DNA of 64,000 bases from Dictyostelium discoideum (taxonomy: Eukaryota): positions 4,928,001-4,992,000 of the forward strand of contig CM000152.2 in NCBI GenBank assembly GCA_000004695.1, read 5' to 3'. This document shows, in pieces, positions 1 through 12,700 of this stretch. The stretch's first letter is position 1. Each line of letters begins with the position of its first letter. The position numbers were made by a program, and so were the translations under genes. Below the pieces are notes generated by a model. The model did not search any database, had not been told where the DNA came from, and saw only the letters and a list, made by a program, of their open reading frames with translations.

Positions 1-627
1 GAGAATTGTTTAAAAGTTTGATAAATCAATTCCTTTTCACCGAGTTTTGGTGCTTCAGTAATAATTTTATTTACAATCTCTTCAGTTTCGAAATCGGCTA
101 AAAATGATCCTTTGAATGATTTATCGGACTTCTTTCTTAATCTAACTGAAACTACCTTATAACCACCATTTGCATTGAAAAACTCTTGAACTTTTTCAAT
201 GGTTGTATCCTCTGGCCAACCTTTGCTATATAATGTTTTACCACAATCAATATTCTCTGGTAATGGATCTAATCTTCTAACCATTTTACCATCTTCACTA
301 ACTTGTAATCTTGTTGATTTCTTTAATGCTTCTGTAATTAATTGTAAATCTGTTGAAATTGTTTTCATTCTATTGAATGATGCAATAACATCAATTGAAA
401 TATCTAAAAATAATAATATTAAAAATAATAAAAAATCGATTAGAATAATATTCATATTTATTTTTTTAAAAAAAAAAAAAAAAAAAAAGGTTATTATTAT
501 AACATTACTTACAATTGTCAACATTTTTAGCAGCTTCAGATCTTAAAAATTTATCTCTTGGGAAATTTGAATCACTAAAATAATATTCAACTTGTTTTAA
601 GATTTGAGTTGATGTTTCTTCTGACAT
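1..627 (-). CDS. La (SSB-type) RNA-binding protein, 5' part of the gene. Exon 1 is 513..627 and exon 2 is 1..403. The CDS continues beyond the window start.
   Basis: The minus strand reads MSEETSTQILKQVEYYFSDSNFPRDKFLRSEAAKNVDN, which is the La motif (YYFSDSNFPRDKFL). A GTAAGT donor lies at 512..507 and a tttag acceptor at about 405..404. Exon 2 encodes an RRM-like region (KGSFLADFETEE...) and stays open to position 1. The plus-strand ORF 199..546 is its shadow. Confidence 0.75.
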
Positions 628-1166
628 TTTTTTATATATATAAGAATTTATTTATAAAAAAAATGAGATGAAAAAAAAAAAAAATTGTTTTCGTTTTTTT
701 TTTTTTCGTTAATTTTTTTTTTTTTTTTTTTGAAAATTTTTTTTATTTTTTTTATTTTTTTTTTTTTTTAAAAAATTTTGTTAAATTTCACAAACCAACG
801 TTAAACTAATACTTCAACCTTAAGTTCAAATATAATTTTATTTTTAATAATAAAAAAAAAAAAAAAAAAAAGAAAAAAAATTTTTTTTGCTGCTTTTTAT
901 TCTGTTTTTTTAATTATAAAATCTTAATTTAAAACTTTTGATAATAATATTGGAAATTTTTTGATTACTTTTTTTTTTTTTTTTTATTTTTTTTTAATTT
1001 TTTTTTTTTTTTTAAAAATTTCCTTTTAAAATTTTTTTTAAGATAACCCTTTAATTAATATTGTTTCTACTGTTGTAAATAATACAATTATAGGAAATTT
1101 TATTATAGGAAATTCCCCATAACAATAATATTAACAAATAATAATATTTATTAACATTTAACAGGA

Positions 1167-1888
1167 TTTTTTAAATTTGTCTTTACGCTGGGACCTAAGC
1201 AGTAGGGCGTGACCGATAAGGGATCCACTGTTATTGCTTTTTGCAAACTATTTCCACAACGCAGTACGATTTGTTTCGGCCTGCAATTTTTAATTCTATC
1301 CTAATTGGATAACCTTTTAATAATTAAAGAAAAAAAAAAAAAATAAAAAAAAAATAAATAAATAAAAAAAAAAAAATTAACAAAATAAAATAAAATAAAA
1401 TAAATAAATAAAATGAAATGAAATAAAATAAAAAAAAGATTTAAAATTTAAAATCACAGGGTGTACACTTTTTTTTTTTTTAATATTTTCATTTTTATAG
1501 TAATCAATTATCATTTTTTTTTTTTTTTCAATAAAATAAATAATCATATATATTAATTGATTTTTTATTTATTATTTTAATTAAACCAATTTGAAAATAT
1601 TTTTATTTTTATTTCTTTTTTTATGTTTTAAATTAAAATTCTTTTTTAAATTAATTTTCGTCATAATAATAATTAATTTTGAAATATTTTAAATTTATCA
1701 TGAAGAGTTTTTTTTTTTTCTTTAATTATTAAAAGTTTATCCAAGAATAGGATAGTGACAAAAATTGCAACCCGAAACAAGTCGTGTTGCGTTTGTGGAA
1801 ATAGTTTGCAAAAAGCAATAACAGTGGATCCCTTATCGGTCACGCCCTACTGCTTTAGTCCCAGCGTAAAGATAACTTTAAAAATTCA
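1167..1888. repeat. About 720-bp inverted-repeat (foldback) element. The two roughly 160-bp arms (about 1167..1330 and 1722..1888) are about 90% identical. They flank a roughly 390-bp AT-rich core.
   Basis: Arm A is TTTTTAAATTTGTCTTTACGCTGGGACCTAAGCAGTAGGGCGTGACCGATAAGGGATCCACTGTTATTGCTTTTTGCAAACTATTTCCACAA...CTTTTAATAATTAAAG. Arm B is its reverse complement. A roughly 90-nt block is near-identical between arms, followed by a more diverged roughly 55-nt block. The arms are the only GC-rich sequence (about 50% GC) in an otherwise AT-rich intergenic region. Confidence 0.8.
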
Positions 1889-2353
1889 TTCATCACTTTT
1901 TTAAATATTAAAGCATGTTCATTTTTTTTTATGGGTTAAAATTTTTAATTTTTTTGATGAAAATTTTGAAATTTTTTATTTTTTTTTTTATTTTTTTTTT
2001 TTTAACATTCTTTTTTAGTTCCTTTTTTATTTTTATTTTTTTTTAATTTGAACTTTGGTTGGCAATTTTAAATTTTTTAAAAAAATTATTATTTATTGAT
2101 ATTAATGAAAATAGTTAAATTATTTTTTGTTTGGGCACCAATTCAAATTATGATTTTCTTTGAATTGTTTTTTTTACATGATTCAAAGATTTTTTTTTTT
2201 TGATTTTTTTTTTTTTTTTAATTACAACACTACCCCTTTCATATTTAGAATTTTTTTCTTTTTTTTTTTTTTTATTATTTTTAATTTTCTTTTTTTTTTT
2301 TTTTTTTATATTTCTAACCAATTGGTTTTGTTTGTAATTAAAATAGAATAAAG

Positions 2354-3050
2354 ATGGAGTTCTTTTCAAATTTATATGGAAAATATTTATCAAAACAAAC
2401 AAATGTTAATAATCATTATTCAAACAATAATTCTATTTCATCAAATATCGATTTTGAATCAATGAATCTTGGTTCGATTAATAGGATTATTGGTTTTGAA
2501 TTTGATGAAGATTTTTTTAAAAAAATTGATAGTAATGGTGATACTGCTCTAACTTTTTTTATTTCTGAAATTATAAAATTTCAAAAATCTCAATCATTTA
2601 ATACCGATTTAAAATTATTTAATAATTCAAAATATAGATATTTATTAGACATACAAAATGATTTTGGTGAAGTTTGTATTTTTTTATAATAATAAATACC
2701 TAAAATTTTATAAATAAATTTTATAAATGTTTTTTTTTTTTTTTTTGAAAAATTAACATTTTTATTTACTATTTTTTTTTTAAAAAAAAAGACACCATTA
2801 CATGTTGCAGGTTATTACAAATAATAAAACATTGACAGAGGCTTTGTAAAAGCTAATGCAAATGCAGGAATTAAAGATTATAGAAATTTAACCCCATTAG
2901 ATATGGCAATTATGTTGGAATATAATGATATTATAAAAATATTGGAAACTTCTGAAACTTCAAAACAATCAAATGTTCAATCAAATATTTATAATTGGGG
3001 AGAAATTCTTACCTCAGATTTTTTATTAAAATCAGAATGGTGGGTACTAG

Positions 3051-3088
<38 letters not shown>

Positions 3089-5471
3089 ATTTCTAATATT
3101 TAGTAAACTATTTACTAATTATAAATCATTTTTTTTATTTTTTATTTTTTATTTTTTTTATGAAATCCAAAAAAAAAGTAAACCAATTAAAATTTTATTT
3201 AATGATGAATTATGTTCACCAATTTCAATTGAATATGGTCAAAATTTTAGTTTAATTTTAACAGATACTGGTGCAGTTTATAGTAGTGGTTTATGTTCAT
3301 ATGGTAAAACAGGTCATAAAATGAAGAGAGATATATCAATACCAACACAAATTAAGTCTTTAGAAAATAAACGTATAAAATCAATTTCATGTGGTTCACA
3401 TCATTCATTAGCATTGGACGATTTAGGTTTAGTTTATTCTTGGGGAAATGGATCAAATGGTAGATTAGGATTAGAATTACATATTTTAGGTGAAAAAAAA
3501 ATTGTATCAACACCAACTTTAATCTCAACAATTGCTTCAAATACTTTGGATCCTGTGGTTGTTCAAATTTCAGCGGGTTTTGATAATTCTTTTCTTATTA
3601 CATCAAATGGTAGTGTTTATAGTTTTGGCAGTGCAATATCGGAGAAATTGGGTTATGACGGCACGGTATTGGGTTACCAAGCATTGCCAAGAAAAATTGA
3701 ATCAATACCTCCAATGAAACAAGTATCAGCTAGTAATTTACATACAGTTCTACTTGATACATGTGGTAATGTATATGCATTTGGTTCACCAACAAATGGT
3801 AGATTAGGTAGACCATCAAATGGGCCTCGTAATGATTATAAACCAACAATGGTTAGTTTTGGTAGTGGTGGTGGTGATGGAACAGTTATAAAAAAAATTG
3901 CAACTGGTACAAATTTTACAATTGTTTTAAGTGACAGTGGTGAACTTTTTGGTTGGGGTGGGAATTCTAATGGTCAATTGGGGGTTGAACCAATATGTAA
4001 TGTTTCAGATTCATTTGATTCACCTACTTTAATTAAATGTTTATCCAATTTAAATTGTGGTAAAATTACAATTCATGATTTTGCAGTTGGTGATCAACAT
4101 GTTGTTATATTAAGTGATGTTGGGGAAGTTTTTTGTTTTGGTGAGGATAGAAAGGCACAATGTGGAATTGGTATATCATATCCAGGCTACAATGACATAT
4201 CATTAACACAAATTCAATCAAATAATTTCAATGGACGTAATATTTTTAAAGTTTATGCTGGTGCTAATAATACAATGGTATCATTATCACCTGATCATCA
4301 TATATTTGGTGAAGAATTATTAAAACTTTTAAATTCAAATTTATTCACTGATATAAAATTAAAAGTTACAGAATCAGATCAAATCATTAATGCTCATAAA
4401 ATTGTATTAGCAGCACGTTGTAAAAAATTTCATTCATTAATTTCATTACAATTAAATAATCCAACAAAACCTCAATCAATTAAATATAATGATTATGATA
4501 ATAATAGTACAACCAAATATATAACATCAGAAATTATAGATGGTATACTTTATATTACTTTTCCAATATCTTTTAAAGTTTTAAATTTATTTTTAAAATA
4601 TTTATATTCAGATCATGTAAATTTAGTAAGTTATTTTATTTTTATTTTATTTTTTAAAAAAATATCATTTTTTAATTATTGGTTTTTTTATTATTTTTTT
4701 TCATAAAGACTCAATCAATTACAGATGAATTAGGTGAATTATCACACTGTATGGGGGTGGGTAGATTATCATATCTTTGTAATTTTAAAAATAATTTATC
4801 ATTACAAAAATTACCAATCTCTACATTATTAGAAGATTTAAAGAAAATTCAAAATCAAGAATATATTGATATTTATTCAAATGTTCAATTTAATTGTGTA
4901 TCAAATGCTGATCCCTTAGAAAATGGAGTTATTAAATCATATAAATTATTTTCAAATTTAGGTTCATTTTATTTTAAAAAAATGTTGGGGGTAGGTTTTT
5001 AATTTTATTTTTATTGCCAAAAAAAAAAAAAAAAAAAAAAAACCAAAAAATAATAATAAAAAGTTATTTTAATTTTTTTTATAGGGATCATATATAGAAT
5101 CTGAACAAAATGAAATTCATTTAAATCAAACATCAATTCATGGTTTAAGATCATTATTAAAATATTGTTATTGTGAAGAAATCCCTGAAGATATAAATGA
5201 ATGTATAGAATTAATTATATTATCTGATATTCATTCAATGCATAGAGCAAAGGATATAACATCAGCTAAAATAAGATCACTAATGGATAATGATTCAATT
5301 TGTTATATTTACCATATTTCTAAATTATATAATGTTAAACCACTTTCAATTTGGTGTTTGGCAAAATTAAATTTAATTTCAACAACACAAGAAAATTTAA
5401 AAAAATTACCATATTTTGATCAATTACCAAATGAATTGAAAATTGAAATCTTAAATTCCTTAAAAAAATAA
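2354..5471 (+). CDS. Ankyrin-repeat / RCC1-repeat / BTB-BACK domain protein (RCBTB-like), multi-exon. The 3' exons are supported: ..4625, 4709..4990 and 5085..5471. The 5' structure (2354..3320) is uncertain.
   Basis: Ankyrin-like segments occur in 2354..2689 and 2840..3045 (TPLHVAG, NLTPLDMAIMLEYNDIIKILE). RCC1 repeats occur in 3180..4300 (GSHHSLALDDLGLVYSWGNGSNGRLG, TNGRLG, GNSNGQLG). The BTB domain is TDIKLKVTESDQIINAHKIVLAARCKKFHSL. A GTAAGT donor lies at 4626 with an acceptor at 4707-4708. A GTAGGT donor lies at 4991 with an acceptor at 5083-5084. The frame is maintained into the BACK-like C-terminus, which ends at TAA 5469..5471. Confidence 0.6.
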
Positions 5472-9700: not shown

Positions 9701-12700
9701 ATATTCATCCATTTTATCCCAATTTACAAGATTCCAAGCGGCAGCTGCAGCCAATGGTGCAATGGTTGCACGAGTATGATCATTGATATCTGATTTCCAA
9801 GTTTCTGATGAGAGTGCAGATAATCTTTCCCATTCACCCAATGCATGTAAACATCTTAAAATACCCATAGTATTTTCAATGGTACCACCATTTGGATCGT
9901 CTTTTTGTTTCTTTTCATAGGCAGCAAGTGCATCTTCCCATCTTCTTAATTTTTCATACCAACCTTCTTTCAATTCGACACTATGATTCTTTTGAGCGTA
10001 AATTAAAATACCAATGGCAGCTTCTGGTTGTTGAAGTTGATTGTTAATACTAATCAAAGCCTCAATGGTTGAAGATGGTGATTGAGAGAATTCAGACTCT
10101 TTATAATGTAAAGCTTTTGCATAGGCATGACATTTCTCTGCCAATGCACCCAATGTACGAATATCGATTGGTAATGGTTTCTCGTGAAGTTCCATAAACT
10201 CTGCAAGATTCAAAAGGGTTTGAAGGATTTCAGGTGGAATATTTGGAGAGAGTAAAGCGGTCTCTAAACTTCTAACCAATTCTTCTTGGAATTGTTCGTG
10301 TAATTCAGTCCAACAACTAACGAAACCAGCATTGAATAACTCTTTAACTAATGGATGATAATCTTGTGCCAATGATAAACAGGATCTAAGTGCAGGTGAT
10401 GGTGATTCACGAAGTAATTCCACAGAGAATCTACGAATCCATTCACCCCAATCTTCTTTGGTTGAACGTTGTGAAGTTTCCCAAGCATTCTTTAGGTGTT
10501 GTTCATTTGCCTTTAATTTCTTTACACCAATATCCAATGGAGTACTTGTGTTATTATGATCTTCACCCAAATGATGACCATTATGATCACCACCGAAACG
10601 ATTTGCACCCATACCACCATCATCACCCGAACCAGGGGTTAACATTAATTGTTGATTCTTTAACAATTTGCTAATGAGTAATTCATAATTTGTTGATTGA
10701 ATTTCACGACGTGCTAAAACCTTACCAACCATTGGAATGAAAATTGCATAATCTGAACCCAATTGATAAACTAAAGCACAGAGAGTATTTAAAGTTTCTT
10801 CACGTAATTCACTCTCGGTACTATCTAAAACTCTTGCCAATGGATGAATGATACGAGATGCATAATCAGAGAAATTCAATTTCTTACAAAGTCTACCAAT
10901 GGTTTGAATTGCCAAAGTTCTAACTTGAGTGGTTACATCTACTTGTTCGAATAATTTAACGATTGCAGGAATTACCAAATGTAGGTAATCATCTAAATTG
11001 GTACCAAATACTTCCAATGCTCTTAAAACTTTAGTGGTTGGTGATCTTTTTGGAGAACGGTCAGTATGAAGTACATTTAACATTTGTGGAATTAAATTTG
11101 GTAAATAAACTTTAAATTCATCATTTAAAGCTGATGAAATCTCTTCGACCAATTTAATGATTGGAATTAATAGATTCGAGTTCCAATATTTTTCAATTAA
11201 AGCGAAAACATTAACTAAATAGTCACGAATATGTTGTTTGACAATTGATACCAATGAACCCAATTGTTGGAAAAGGAATTCTCTAAATAATGGTTCACCA
11301 GTGTTCATAGCATGAAGGAATGGTGGCATAATTTGTGGTAAGAATGGAATTGATTTCAATGATAAACTCTTAAAGATATACATAACAGCTTGAATTACAC
11401 TTGTATGATGCGAGGATAATGATGGATCTCTAAGGATTTTCATTAAGGCCGTCAAAGCAACGGTTGGATAATAATCTTCATTCGATGGTGAAATTGTAAT
11501 CACTTCATTGGTCATATTGTTATTCTTATCATCGTTTGCTTTTGGATCTTCTCTACGTTTACCCAATTCATTCATTTTATGTTTATATGGATCCAATGAA
11601 CCTAAAATACCTAAAACCTTGATAACCTCTCTTCTAATTGAACCAATTCTTTCGGTTTTAATTGCATTCAATAGGGTATCCAATAGCATTGGATACTTTG
11701 AGAATGGTTTAATAACATAACCAGTTGATGAAGCTAATTGTGCCAATGTTTTCAATGCAACTTCTCTCTTTGAAGTTGAACTTTGATCTTGAAGTGTATC
11801 AATGATTAGAGGTAACAATGAATCTATATGTTGTACCATCTCTTCACCACCAACCACTGATAACTCACCCAATGCAGCCAATACACAAGATGCAACACGT
11901 GGATTACTATCACGTAATTTTGGTAACAATGCCTTAAGAATTGGTTCTACGTATGGTTTAATTAATTTCTCTGACGCTGAAATTAAATGACCTAATAATC
12001 TTGCACTCTCTTCCTTATTTCTACCATCACCACTAAATTCCAATTCTGTTAGTAGTTGAATTAATGTTTTACGAAGTGATGGCATAACATATGCTGGATT
12101 TCTAATTGTTAAACGACCAATTACAGTGATTGCCAATTCACGAATTTCAAATAACTCATCGTTCAATGCGATGAATAATGAACGTAAATTCTCTGCCTGT
12201 GCTAAATAATGATCGAAACGTGCCTCTAAACTTGATAATACAGTCTTACGAATTGATGGATCAGGATCAGCAATACCAACAACCAATAGTTTCTCCAATA
12301 CCTCACCTACGATAACAGCAGAATGACCACGAGTTGGTGTTGGTTCTTCAGTTCCTACCATAAGTTGAGCACAAGTAATGGCAGCCTCTCTACGAATTTC
12401 AATGTTGTCATCATCCAAATAGTTTACAACACACTCCCTAACGAATTCCAATAGATTATGTTTAGAGAAATCAAAGCTACCCAAAGTTTTCAAAGCCAAT
12501 GCAATCATTTGTGGATCAACATCTGAATTCTGACCCAATTGTGGTATTGAACCACCTTGGAAAGGTGTTGCACTCTTTCTGTAGGGCGATGGTGCACCAG
12601 GTTCAGAGAATGGTTTATTTGCCAAGACTTGACTAATTAAATTCAATAGTTTATACTGAATGTTTGGTATTAACGTTGGTAAATTAATTGTTAAATCTCT

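Follow-up and report, generated by a model that had tools for sequence, protein, structure and literature searches.

Two inverted arms around an AT-rich core can be read as a transposon or as a pair of genes, and one locus of Dictyostelium discoideum AX4 raises exactly this question. The element occupies positions 1167 to 1888 of a 64,000-nucleotide stretch of chromosome 3 (contig CM000152.2, positions 4,928,001 to 4,992,000), which is hereafter called the window. The original prediction, made from the sequence alone, proposed either a miniature inverted-repeat transposable element (MITE) or foldback transposon, or a convergent non-coding RNA (ncRNA) gene pair or duplicated small-RNA gene. The second proposal was borne out: covariance models identify both arms as full-length U4, and each arm has its own Dictyostelium upstream sequence element (DUSE). 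We conclude with high confidence that the element is composed of two independent transcription units for the U4 spliceosomal small nuclear RNA (snRNA), arranged tail to tail. They are called here the proximal and the distal copies, according to their distance from the neighbouring La-domain gene.

Identification of Two U4 snRNA Genes

The Rfam scan of the whole window returned exactly two matches above the gathering score. Both are to RF00015, whose gathering score is 46 bits, and both cover the model from end to end (1-138 of 138). Even with a permissive E-value, the Rfam scan of the window revealed nothing beyond these two U4 matches, and a tRNA scan of the window found no tRNA gene. The two genes are convergent, and 426 nt separate their RNA 3' ends. 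The subdivisions of both RNAs are listed in Table 1.

The regions predicted to pair with U6 in both arms, nt 1-16 for stem II and about nt 56-63 for stem I, agree with the Rfam U4 consensus. The 5' strand AUCUUUACGCUGGGAC, the predicted partner in U6 stem II, is seen in the sequence. UUGCU is also present, and UUAUUGCUUUUUG holds the GCU predicted to face the AGC triad of U6. The 5' stem-loop shows the kink-turn sequence GGG-CGU-GA-CC-GAUAA-GG-GA-UCC, which does not vary between the two copies or among the 14 copies of the D. discoideum clade. The 5' stem-loop of human U4 is GCC-AAU-GA-GG-UUUAU-CC-GA-GGC. The two sequences share their layout, with a 3-bp stem, a 3-nt bulge whose last base is U, tandem G.A pairs, a second stem of 2 bp, and a pentaloop. 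Between the two 3' hairpins, the distal copy has an Sm site of the form RAU(4-6)GR (AAUUUUUGU). The proximal copy deviates from this form (AAUUUUUAA), and the single U4 of D. purpureum likewise has AAUUUUUAA.

Single-sequence folding of the arms was uninformative, with z-scores of -1.0 and -1.2. A weak fold of the single sequence is expected because U4 normally pairs with U6. Covariation was therefore used instead, in an alignment of 15 U4 sequences (14 copies from the D. discoideum clade and the D. purpureum copy). When the U4 structure was laid on this alignment, 96.6% of cells were paired, against 26-46% in slid controls. Five pairs are changed on both sides, compared with 1.3 in shuffles, and none of the 500 shuffles reached the observed value. 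The helix pairs of the kink-turn are kept at 99-100% across the alignment, with three double-sided changes from D. purpureum; much of the covariation in the 5' stem-loop comes from this species. In the 3' stem-loop, a switch from G-C to A-U sets the proximal-type copies apart from the distal-type copies. RNAalifold recovered the 5' and 3' stem-loops unaided. As judged from the alignment, the arms are conserved in the manner of a functional RNA.

Sequence Features of the Inverted Arms

The inverted repeat itself is present at the predicted place. Arms of ~170 bp flank an AT-rich spacer and show 89% identity (BLAST E 3e-45). A repeat search delimited the arms at 1124-1259 and 1793-1928 (136 nt, 83% complementary without gaps), and the MAFFT alignment of 1090-1340 (+) with 1715-1965 (-) showed 87% mean column identity across ~250 nt. 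When one arm was compared with the 64-kb window by BLASTN, the sole match was the other arm (88.9%, 135 nt, E 2.9e-45). The arms are, as had been noticed, the sole non-AT-rich DNA of the 1.7-kb intergenic region (629-2353). Their GC fraction in 100-nt windows is 0.41-0.43, versus 0.04-0.24 elsewhere in the region; the GC content of the arms, first given as about 50%, was measured as 42%.

The sequence bears out the description of each arm as a nearly invariant 90-nt block with a diverged 55-nt block after it. The 5' parts are identical at 74 of 77 positions and the 3' parts at 46 of 59. Thus, 16 positions differ between the arms, three in the 5' 77 nt and 13 in the last 59 columns. The flanks of the two arms differ from each other.

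The near-identity of the outer ends is also as quoted in the original prediction. The ends placed at 1167 and 1888 are, however, not the limits of similarity, as conserved motifs go on outward. The similarity outside these positions consists of motifs only: CCCATAA (1116-1122 and 1935-1929) and TAATATTTA (1142-1150 and 1910-1902). Both are promoter motifs, and therefore the similarity represents promoter likeness and not a terminal inverted repeat (TIR). The supposed TIR termini consist of the regions of transcription start and the RNA 5' ends. Inward, the similarity extends ~30 nt beyond the RNA 3' ends.

A palindrome, CACAGGGTGTACAC (1455-1468), had been reported in the core. Its part GTGTACAC (1461-1468) is self-complementary, and the remainder is not. 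None of the six other genomes, the second D. discoideum strain included, has GTGTACAC in its spacer. The palindrome was dropped as a functional element because it is seen only in AX4.

Promoter Elements and the Proposed Working of Each Unit

The DUSE, [AT]CCCA[AT]AA, is located ~63 bp upstream of the snRNA genes and the Class I/II RNA genes of Dictyostelium (PMC3188802, PMC7919456). A DUSE or DUSE-like element and a TATA-like box are found upstream of each U4 copy (Table 1). The distal element ACCCATAA matches the motif exactly. The proximal element CCCCATAA has C instead of A/T at the first position and fits only the relaxed DUSE pattern (PMC3188802 supplement). The strict motif has only 11 matches in the window. 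Among the 15 aligned U4 copies, CCCATAA is found at -63 to -66 in every one. A TATA-like match at -35 to -39 is found in 13, and it is exactly TAATATTTA in 10 of them. The bases adjoining the TATA-like match diverge.

Each unit is probably transcribed from its own DUSE (-63/-64) and TATA-like box (-37), which would give an RNA of ~135 nt. The 5' end of this U4 and its UUGCU region are predicted to pair with U6 and form stems II and I, respectively. The 5' stem-loop would fold as a kink-turn and serve as the platform for Snu13/15.5K, nucleating the U4/U6 small nuclear ribonucleoprotein (snRNP). The Sm site between the two hairpins would assemble the Sm ring. The likely end point of transcription or processing is a conserved block ~10-13 nt downstream of the RNA. 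From the sequence we infer that both copies are transcribed by Pol II and expressed. The CTTTT run past the gene was considered as a Pol III terminator and rejected; the T-run is not conserved, being replaced by CATTT, CTCTT, and CTTAT in other species.

Table 1. Features of the two U4 snRNA transcription units and their flanks (positions in the window; for the minus strand, positions are given in the direction of transcription).
Feature	Position	Strand	Remarks
DUSE-like element CCCCATAA, proximal gene	1115-1122	+	Starts at -64
TATA-like box TAATATTTA, proximal gene	1142-1150	+	-37
U4 snRNA, La-proximal copy	1179-1311 (133 nt)	+	RF00015, 52.6 bits; own clade model R1, 155.9 bits
Proximal U4, 5' strand for U6 stem II	1179-1194	+	
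Proximal U4, kink-turn 5' stem-loop	1199-1231	+	
Proximal U4, stem I strand UUGCUUUUUG	1234-1243	+	
Proximal U4, 3' stem-loop	1261-1284	+	
Proximal U4, Sm-like site AAUUUUUAA	1285-1293	+	
Proximal U4, terminal hairpin	1297-1311	+	
3'-flank block, proximal: ACCTTTTAATAATTAAAG, then A-run	1312-1343	+	Candidate 3'-end formation signal
AT-rich spacer between the 3' blocks, ~9% GC	1344-1707	.	Includes AX4-only GTGTACAC at 1461-1468
3'-flank block, distal: AACTTTTAATAATTAAAG, then A12	1737-1708	-	
Distal U4, terminal hairpin	1754-1738	-	
Distal U4, canonical Sm site AAUUUUUGU	1766-1758	-	
Distal U4, 3' stem-loop	1790-1767	-	
Distal U4, stem I strand	1818-1809	-	
Distal U4, kink-turn 5' stem-loop	1853-1821	-	
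Distal U4, stem II strand	1873-1858	-	
U4 snRNA, distal copy	1873-1738 (136 nt)	-	RF00015, 64.2 bits; own model R1, 170.9 bits
TATA-like box TAATATTTA, distal gene	1910-1902	-	-37
DUSE ACCCATAA, distal gene	1936-1929	-	Starts at -63; exact match to [AT]CCCA[AT]AA

Synteny and Conservation of the U4 Pair

The U4 pair is located at ~chr3:4,929,179-4,929,873. This position was derived from that of DDB_G0281777, at chromosome 3:4,951,421 (PMC3188802 supplement). Exact matches to AX4 proteins among the open reading frames (ORFs) of the window are DDB_G0281777 and parts of a DEAD-box helicase and of a MON1 homologue. In the newer assembly of the AX4 lineage, GCA_054883475.1 (L002), the neighbours of the pair are an Ank/RCC1/BTB gene (window 2351-5452, +) and a La-domain gene (up to 628, -), and TOR is found further on. 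The window and this assembly agree exactly over the two arms and their promoters (1100-1345 and 1700-1945). The differences are confined to the AT-rich spacer (~1345-1700) and are probably due to homopolymer lengths.

With the La protein as the synteny anchor, eight assemblies from five species were seen to carry the convergent U4 pair at the same syntenic position, flanked by the RCC1-repeat gene and La. Besides the window, these are the newer AX4-lineage assembly, the second D. discoideum strain, D. cf. discoideum, D. dimigraforme, two D. citrinum genomes, and D. firmibasis. In the six other genomes (those outside the AX4 lineage), the RF00015 scores of the orthologues are 57.6-61.8 bits for the distal copy and 46.8-55.4 bits for the proximal copy. 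The spacer between the RNA ends is 325-1080 nt long in the other genomes and is only patchily alignable. These spacers evolve freely, and no conserved element was found within the spacer at 1344-1707. The U4 copies are 97-98% identical between the two D. discoideum strains, while the spacer is 81-85% identical; therefore, both copies are under purifying selection.

In D. purpureum, one U4 is present ~500 bp upstream of La (48.5 bits). The clade-specific covariance model found no second U4 at this La locus, and no U4 at the La loci of P. violaceum and T. lacteum. TOR was also used as an anchor. Its orthologues were found, but synteny downstream of TOR does not hold in D. purpureum and T. lacteum, and no U4 lies at that place. 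The protein search with the RCC1-repeat ORF (window 3321-4706, +) returned generic RCC1 proteins only, with no dictyostelid orthologue or D. discoideum self-match. As the RCC1-repeat neighbour gene is called in the assemblies (893 aa), this failure looks like a limit of the word-index search with repeat proteins.

The La-domain gene (window 1-628, -; L012:5356-7145) adjoins U4 in every Group 4 species examined, D. purpureum among them. P. violaceum and T. lacteum do not share the linkage between La and U4, which is probably a coincidental synteny.

Duplication and Gene Conversion

The distribution of sites between the copies is mosaic: 104 cells show the orthology pattern and 65 cells show the concerted pattern. 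The orthology-type sites include A1 versus G1, GCAAC...GUUGC versus GCAGU...CCUGC, and AAUUUUUGUCAC versus AAUUUUUAAUUC. Such sites show that the duplication predates these species, and the inverted duplication is dated by sequence comparison as older than the split between D. discoideum and D. firmibasis. The concerted-type sites show that the copies have since been partly homogenised, in patches, by gene conversion. They include U56 in both AX4 copies versus G56 in both copies of other strains, and AUCCAUUCGC in both copies of D. dimigraforme. The loop and hairpin states of this type are species-specific. The nearly invariant 90-nt block and the diverged 3' part can be explained by gene conversion combined with strong constraint on the 5' half, which binds U6 and proteins.

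Nucleotide 56 of U4 corresponds to positions 1234 and 1818 of the window. It is U in the AX4 copies (UUAUUGCU) and G in the second D. discoideum strain and most sister species (UUAGUGCU). A difference at the strain level that is common to both paralogues indicates recent gene conversion beside the strand for U6 stem I.

The two D. citrinum strains differ in the extent of conversion. In strain 1, the 3' half of the proximal copy is the same as that of the distal copy (59/59), while in strain 2 the proximal type is kept (49/59). The conversion tract is polymorphic within the species (L008:5298-5433 versus L009:5301-5434).

In D. dimigraforme (L007:4449-4584 and 5235-5369), both U4 genes start with AUCCAUUCGC and not with AUCUUUACGC, within the strand for U6 stem II. 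This start predicts either compensating changes in the U6 of D. dimigraforme or tolerated mismatches.

Alternative Explanations

An alternative to two functional genes is that the distal copy (1873-1738) is the one functional U4, and that the proximal copy (1179-1311) is a decaying or non-functional duplicate refreshed by gene conversion. We regard this as unlikely, but several features of the proximal copy do speak for it and weigh against two full genes. Its Rfam score, 52.6 bits here and 46.8-55.4 bits in other genomes, is near the gathering score and is below that of the distal copy in every genome (57.6-64.2 bits). Its Sm-like site has A in place of G after the U-run and is AAUUUUUAA or AAUUUUUAU, not RAU(n)GR. 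The first position of its DUSE is C here, and C or G instead of A/T in most species. Its 3' stem-loop has an internal loop of two mismatches, U.C and A.G, and the five unpaired cells at the pair 99/114 are mostly from proximal copies. Gene conversion between the U4 copies is evident. Due to the A in the Sm site, the C in the DUSE, and the mismatches in the 3' stem-loop, it is not certain that the proximal copy is fully functional.

On the other hand, the DUSE and the TATA-like box are present at the right distance before the proximal copy in all seven of the seven genomes. The proximal-type states (G1, GCAGUACGA...CGGCCUGC, and AAUUUUUAAUUC) persist in D. discoideum and D. cf. discoideum, and partly in D. 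citrinum and D. dimigraforme; this persistence shows inheritance and maintenance rather than decay. At the proximal copy, the two D. discoideum strains share 97% identity, compared with 81-85% in the spacer. In addition, D. purpureum carries AAUUUUUAA in its single syntenic U4, and the Sm variant is therefore compatible with a sole local U4. Within the reading of two U4 genes, the La-proximal copy may be a U4 isoform that is conserved and altered in its Sm site and 3' domain, and not a redundant duplicate.

The transposon explanation supposes a non-autonomous foldback or MITE element whose TIRs carry, or are derived from, snRNA sequence. It has next to no chance of being correct. Inverted arms, an AT-rich core, and near-identical outer ends do resemble the geometry of MITEs and foldback transposons, but the resemblance is superficial. 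A check at 1167 and 1888 found no target-site duplication (TSD) in the flanks, ...TAACAGGA versus TTCATCAC.... A dedicated covariance model, run on the window and on 94 kb from other dictyostelid loci, found no further copy of the arms except for the known U4 of D. purpureum. The arms are complete genes under purifying selection, and their promoters lie outside the supposed termini. There is no insertion polymorphism: the pair stays at its single site in all eight assemblies, while the spacers vary freely in length and sequence. Moreover, the covariation indicates selection on the RNA structure. The transposon reading was rejected on the lack of TSDs and of further copies in the window and the other loci searched, the fixed site, the freely evolving spacers, and the restriction of the palindrome to AX4.

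A mis-assembly of a single U4 into a palindrome can practically be dismissed, since, despite the extreme AT-richness of the region and the differences from the newer assembly in the spacer (1345-1700), the arms differ at 16 positions and have distinct flanks, both arms and promoters are reproduced exactly in that independent assembly, and the U4 pair recurs in six further genomes that were assembled independently.

A Conserved Block in the 3' Flank

The two U4 genes share one more feature outside the RNA. Just past each RNA, A(A/C)CTTTTAATAATTAAAG is found, followed by a genome-encoded A-run. TTAAAGA(n) begins at +10 to +13 past the RNA in 13 of the 15 U4 copies, that of D. purpureum among them, and a 14th copy has TTAAAAA at +13. 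The block, ~20 nt long, is at a like position in the loci L006 to L012, where the remaining spacer diverges. The exact 11-mer TTAAAGAAAAA is present at 13 of the 15 U4 3' ends. Its total is 22 occurrences in 237 kb searched on both strands (474 kb of strand): the 13 at U4, one at the U1 candidate described below (14 in all), and eight others. The block, with its core AATTAAAGAAAAA at 10-13 nt past the RNA, may be a signal for 3'-end formation, to judge from its position and conservation.

A candidate U1 gene was observed in T. lacteum (L014:10927-11075, in the region 10865-11100). Its score is 45.3 bits, below the gathering score of 69.5, and it begins with ATACTTACCAGG. A DUSE with two C residues, TTCCATAA, is located at -62, and the candidate is followed by AATTAAAGAAAAA, with TTAAAG from +13. 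It is probably a genuine U1 gene missed by the Rfam threshold.

A scan of metagenome sequences (L015 to L134), aimed at the U2 genes of dictyostelids, specified only CCATAA and the U2 core. It revealed many AT-rich U2 loci with [AT]CCCATAA at -54 to -59 (for example, L045, L093, L101, L108, and L109). AAAG(G)AAA just 3' of U2 was found in 9 of 18 of the metagenome loci, versus none of 36 control windows (p = 9e-6). The 3' flank of L108, TTTTGATAATTAAAGGAAA, is nearly the Dictyostelium block. L037, the only locus with the upstream element at -62, has TTTAAACAAACGAAA instead of the motif. In their sequence features, these U2 loci are consistent with ciliates, whose upstream sequence element (USE) is AAACCCATAA (PMC3273799), and they serve only as a loosely related comparison.

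A wider reading is that the 3' block is the 3'-end signal of dictyostelid snRNA genes and that, together with the DUSE, it is part of an architecture common to Amoebozoa and ciliates. Its basis is that the block follows the U1 candidate of a Group 3 dictyostelid, and that a close relative of the block follows U2 in AT-rich protists with ACCCATAA upstream. We propose it tentatively and would lean against it at present. Literature searches on rnu4 and on the motif string of the 3' block found nothing relevant.

Comparison with Known snRNA Genes and Significance

The snRNA genes of D. discoideum (the rnu family) were reportedly catalogued by Hinas et al. in 2006 (Eukaryot Cell 5:924). The U4 of this species is listed as GenBank AY918063 (PMC4237228), and 17-18 snRNA genes are catalogued in total (PMC11193728 Table 2; PMC3188802 supplement). 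Both U4 loci are almost certainly among them. The organism, the RNA family, and the DUSE ~63 bp upstream are the same as for the known D. discoideum U4 genes, and no difference is expected.

The genes for snRNA, small nucleolar RNA (snoRNA), and U3 in the ciliates Tetrahymena and Paramecium have the USE AAACCCATAA and a "distinct downstream element" (PMC3273799). The core of the ciliate USE is nearly identical to AACCCATAA of the AX4 distal copy. AT-rich flanks and a conserved element positioned just 3' of the RNA are also common to both, although the downstream elements are compared by position only. The USE is at about -54 to -57 in the ciliate-like U2 loci, in contrast to -63 in Dictyostelia. 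Ciliates belong to Alveolata and Dictyostelia to Amoebozoa, and the two are unrelated organisms.

Like the Pol II snRNA genes of metazoans, the U4 genes here are compact units of a promoter, an RNA, and a candidate 3' signal, and their paralogues are homogenised by gene conversion (compare the multicopy U1 and U2). Unlike them, they have the DUSE and not the proximal and distal sequence elements (PSE/DSE), and they are present as two inverted copies and not as tandem arrays. The 3' box of metazoans lies 9-19 nt past the RNA. Its sequence, GTTTN0-3AAARNNAGA, is only loosely resembled by AATTAAAGAAAAA. Metazoan Pol II snRNA genes have the 3' box and Integrator cleavage (PMC5079582).

As an annotation, the result is of little weight: a false transposon candidate is removed, and two ordinary snRNA genes, almost certainly catalogued already, are labelled. 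The locus is, however, a clean natural case of an inverted snRNA pair kept across the D. discoideum clade, in which mosaic conversion can be dated between strains. The 3' block offers a concrete candidate, open to mutation, for the signal that forms the 3' ends of Pol II snRNAs in Dictyostelium, and it could sharpen the ncRNA gene finders that now use the DUSE alone. If the architecture common to Amoebozoa and ciliates is true, the design of an upstream element and a 3' box would be far older than the metazoan and plant models suggest.

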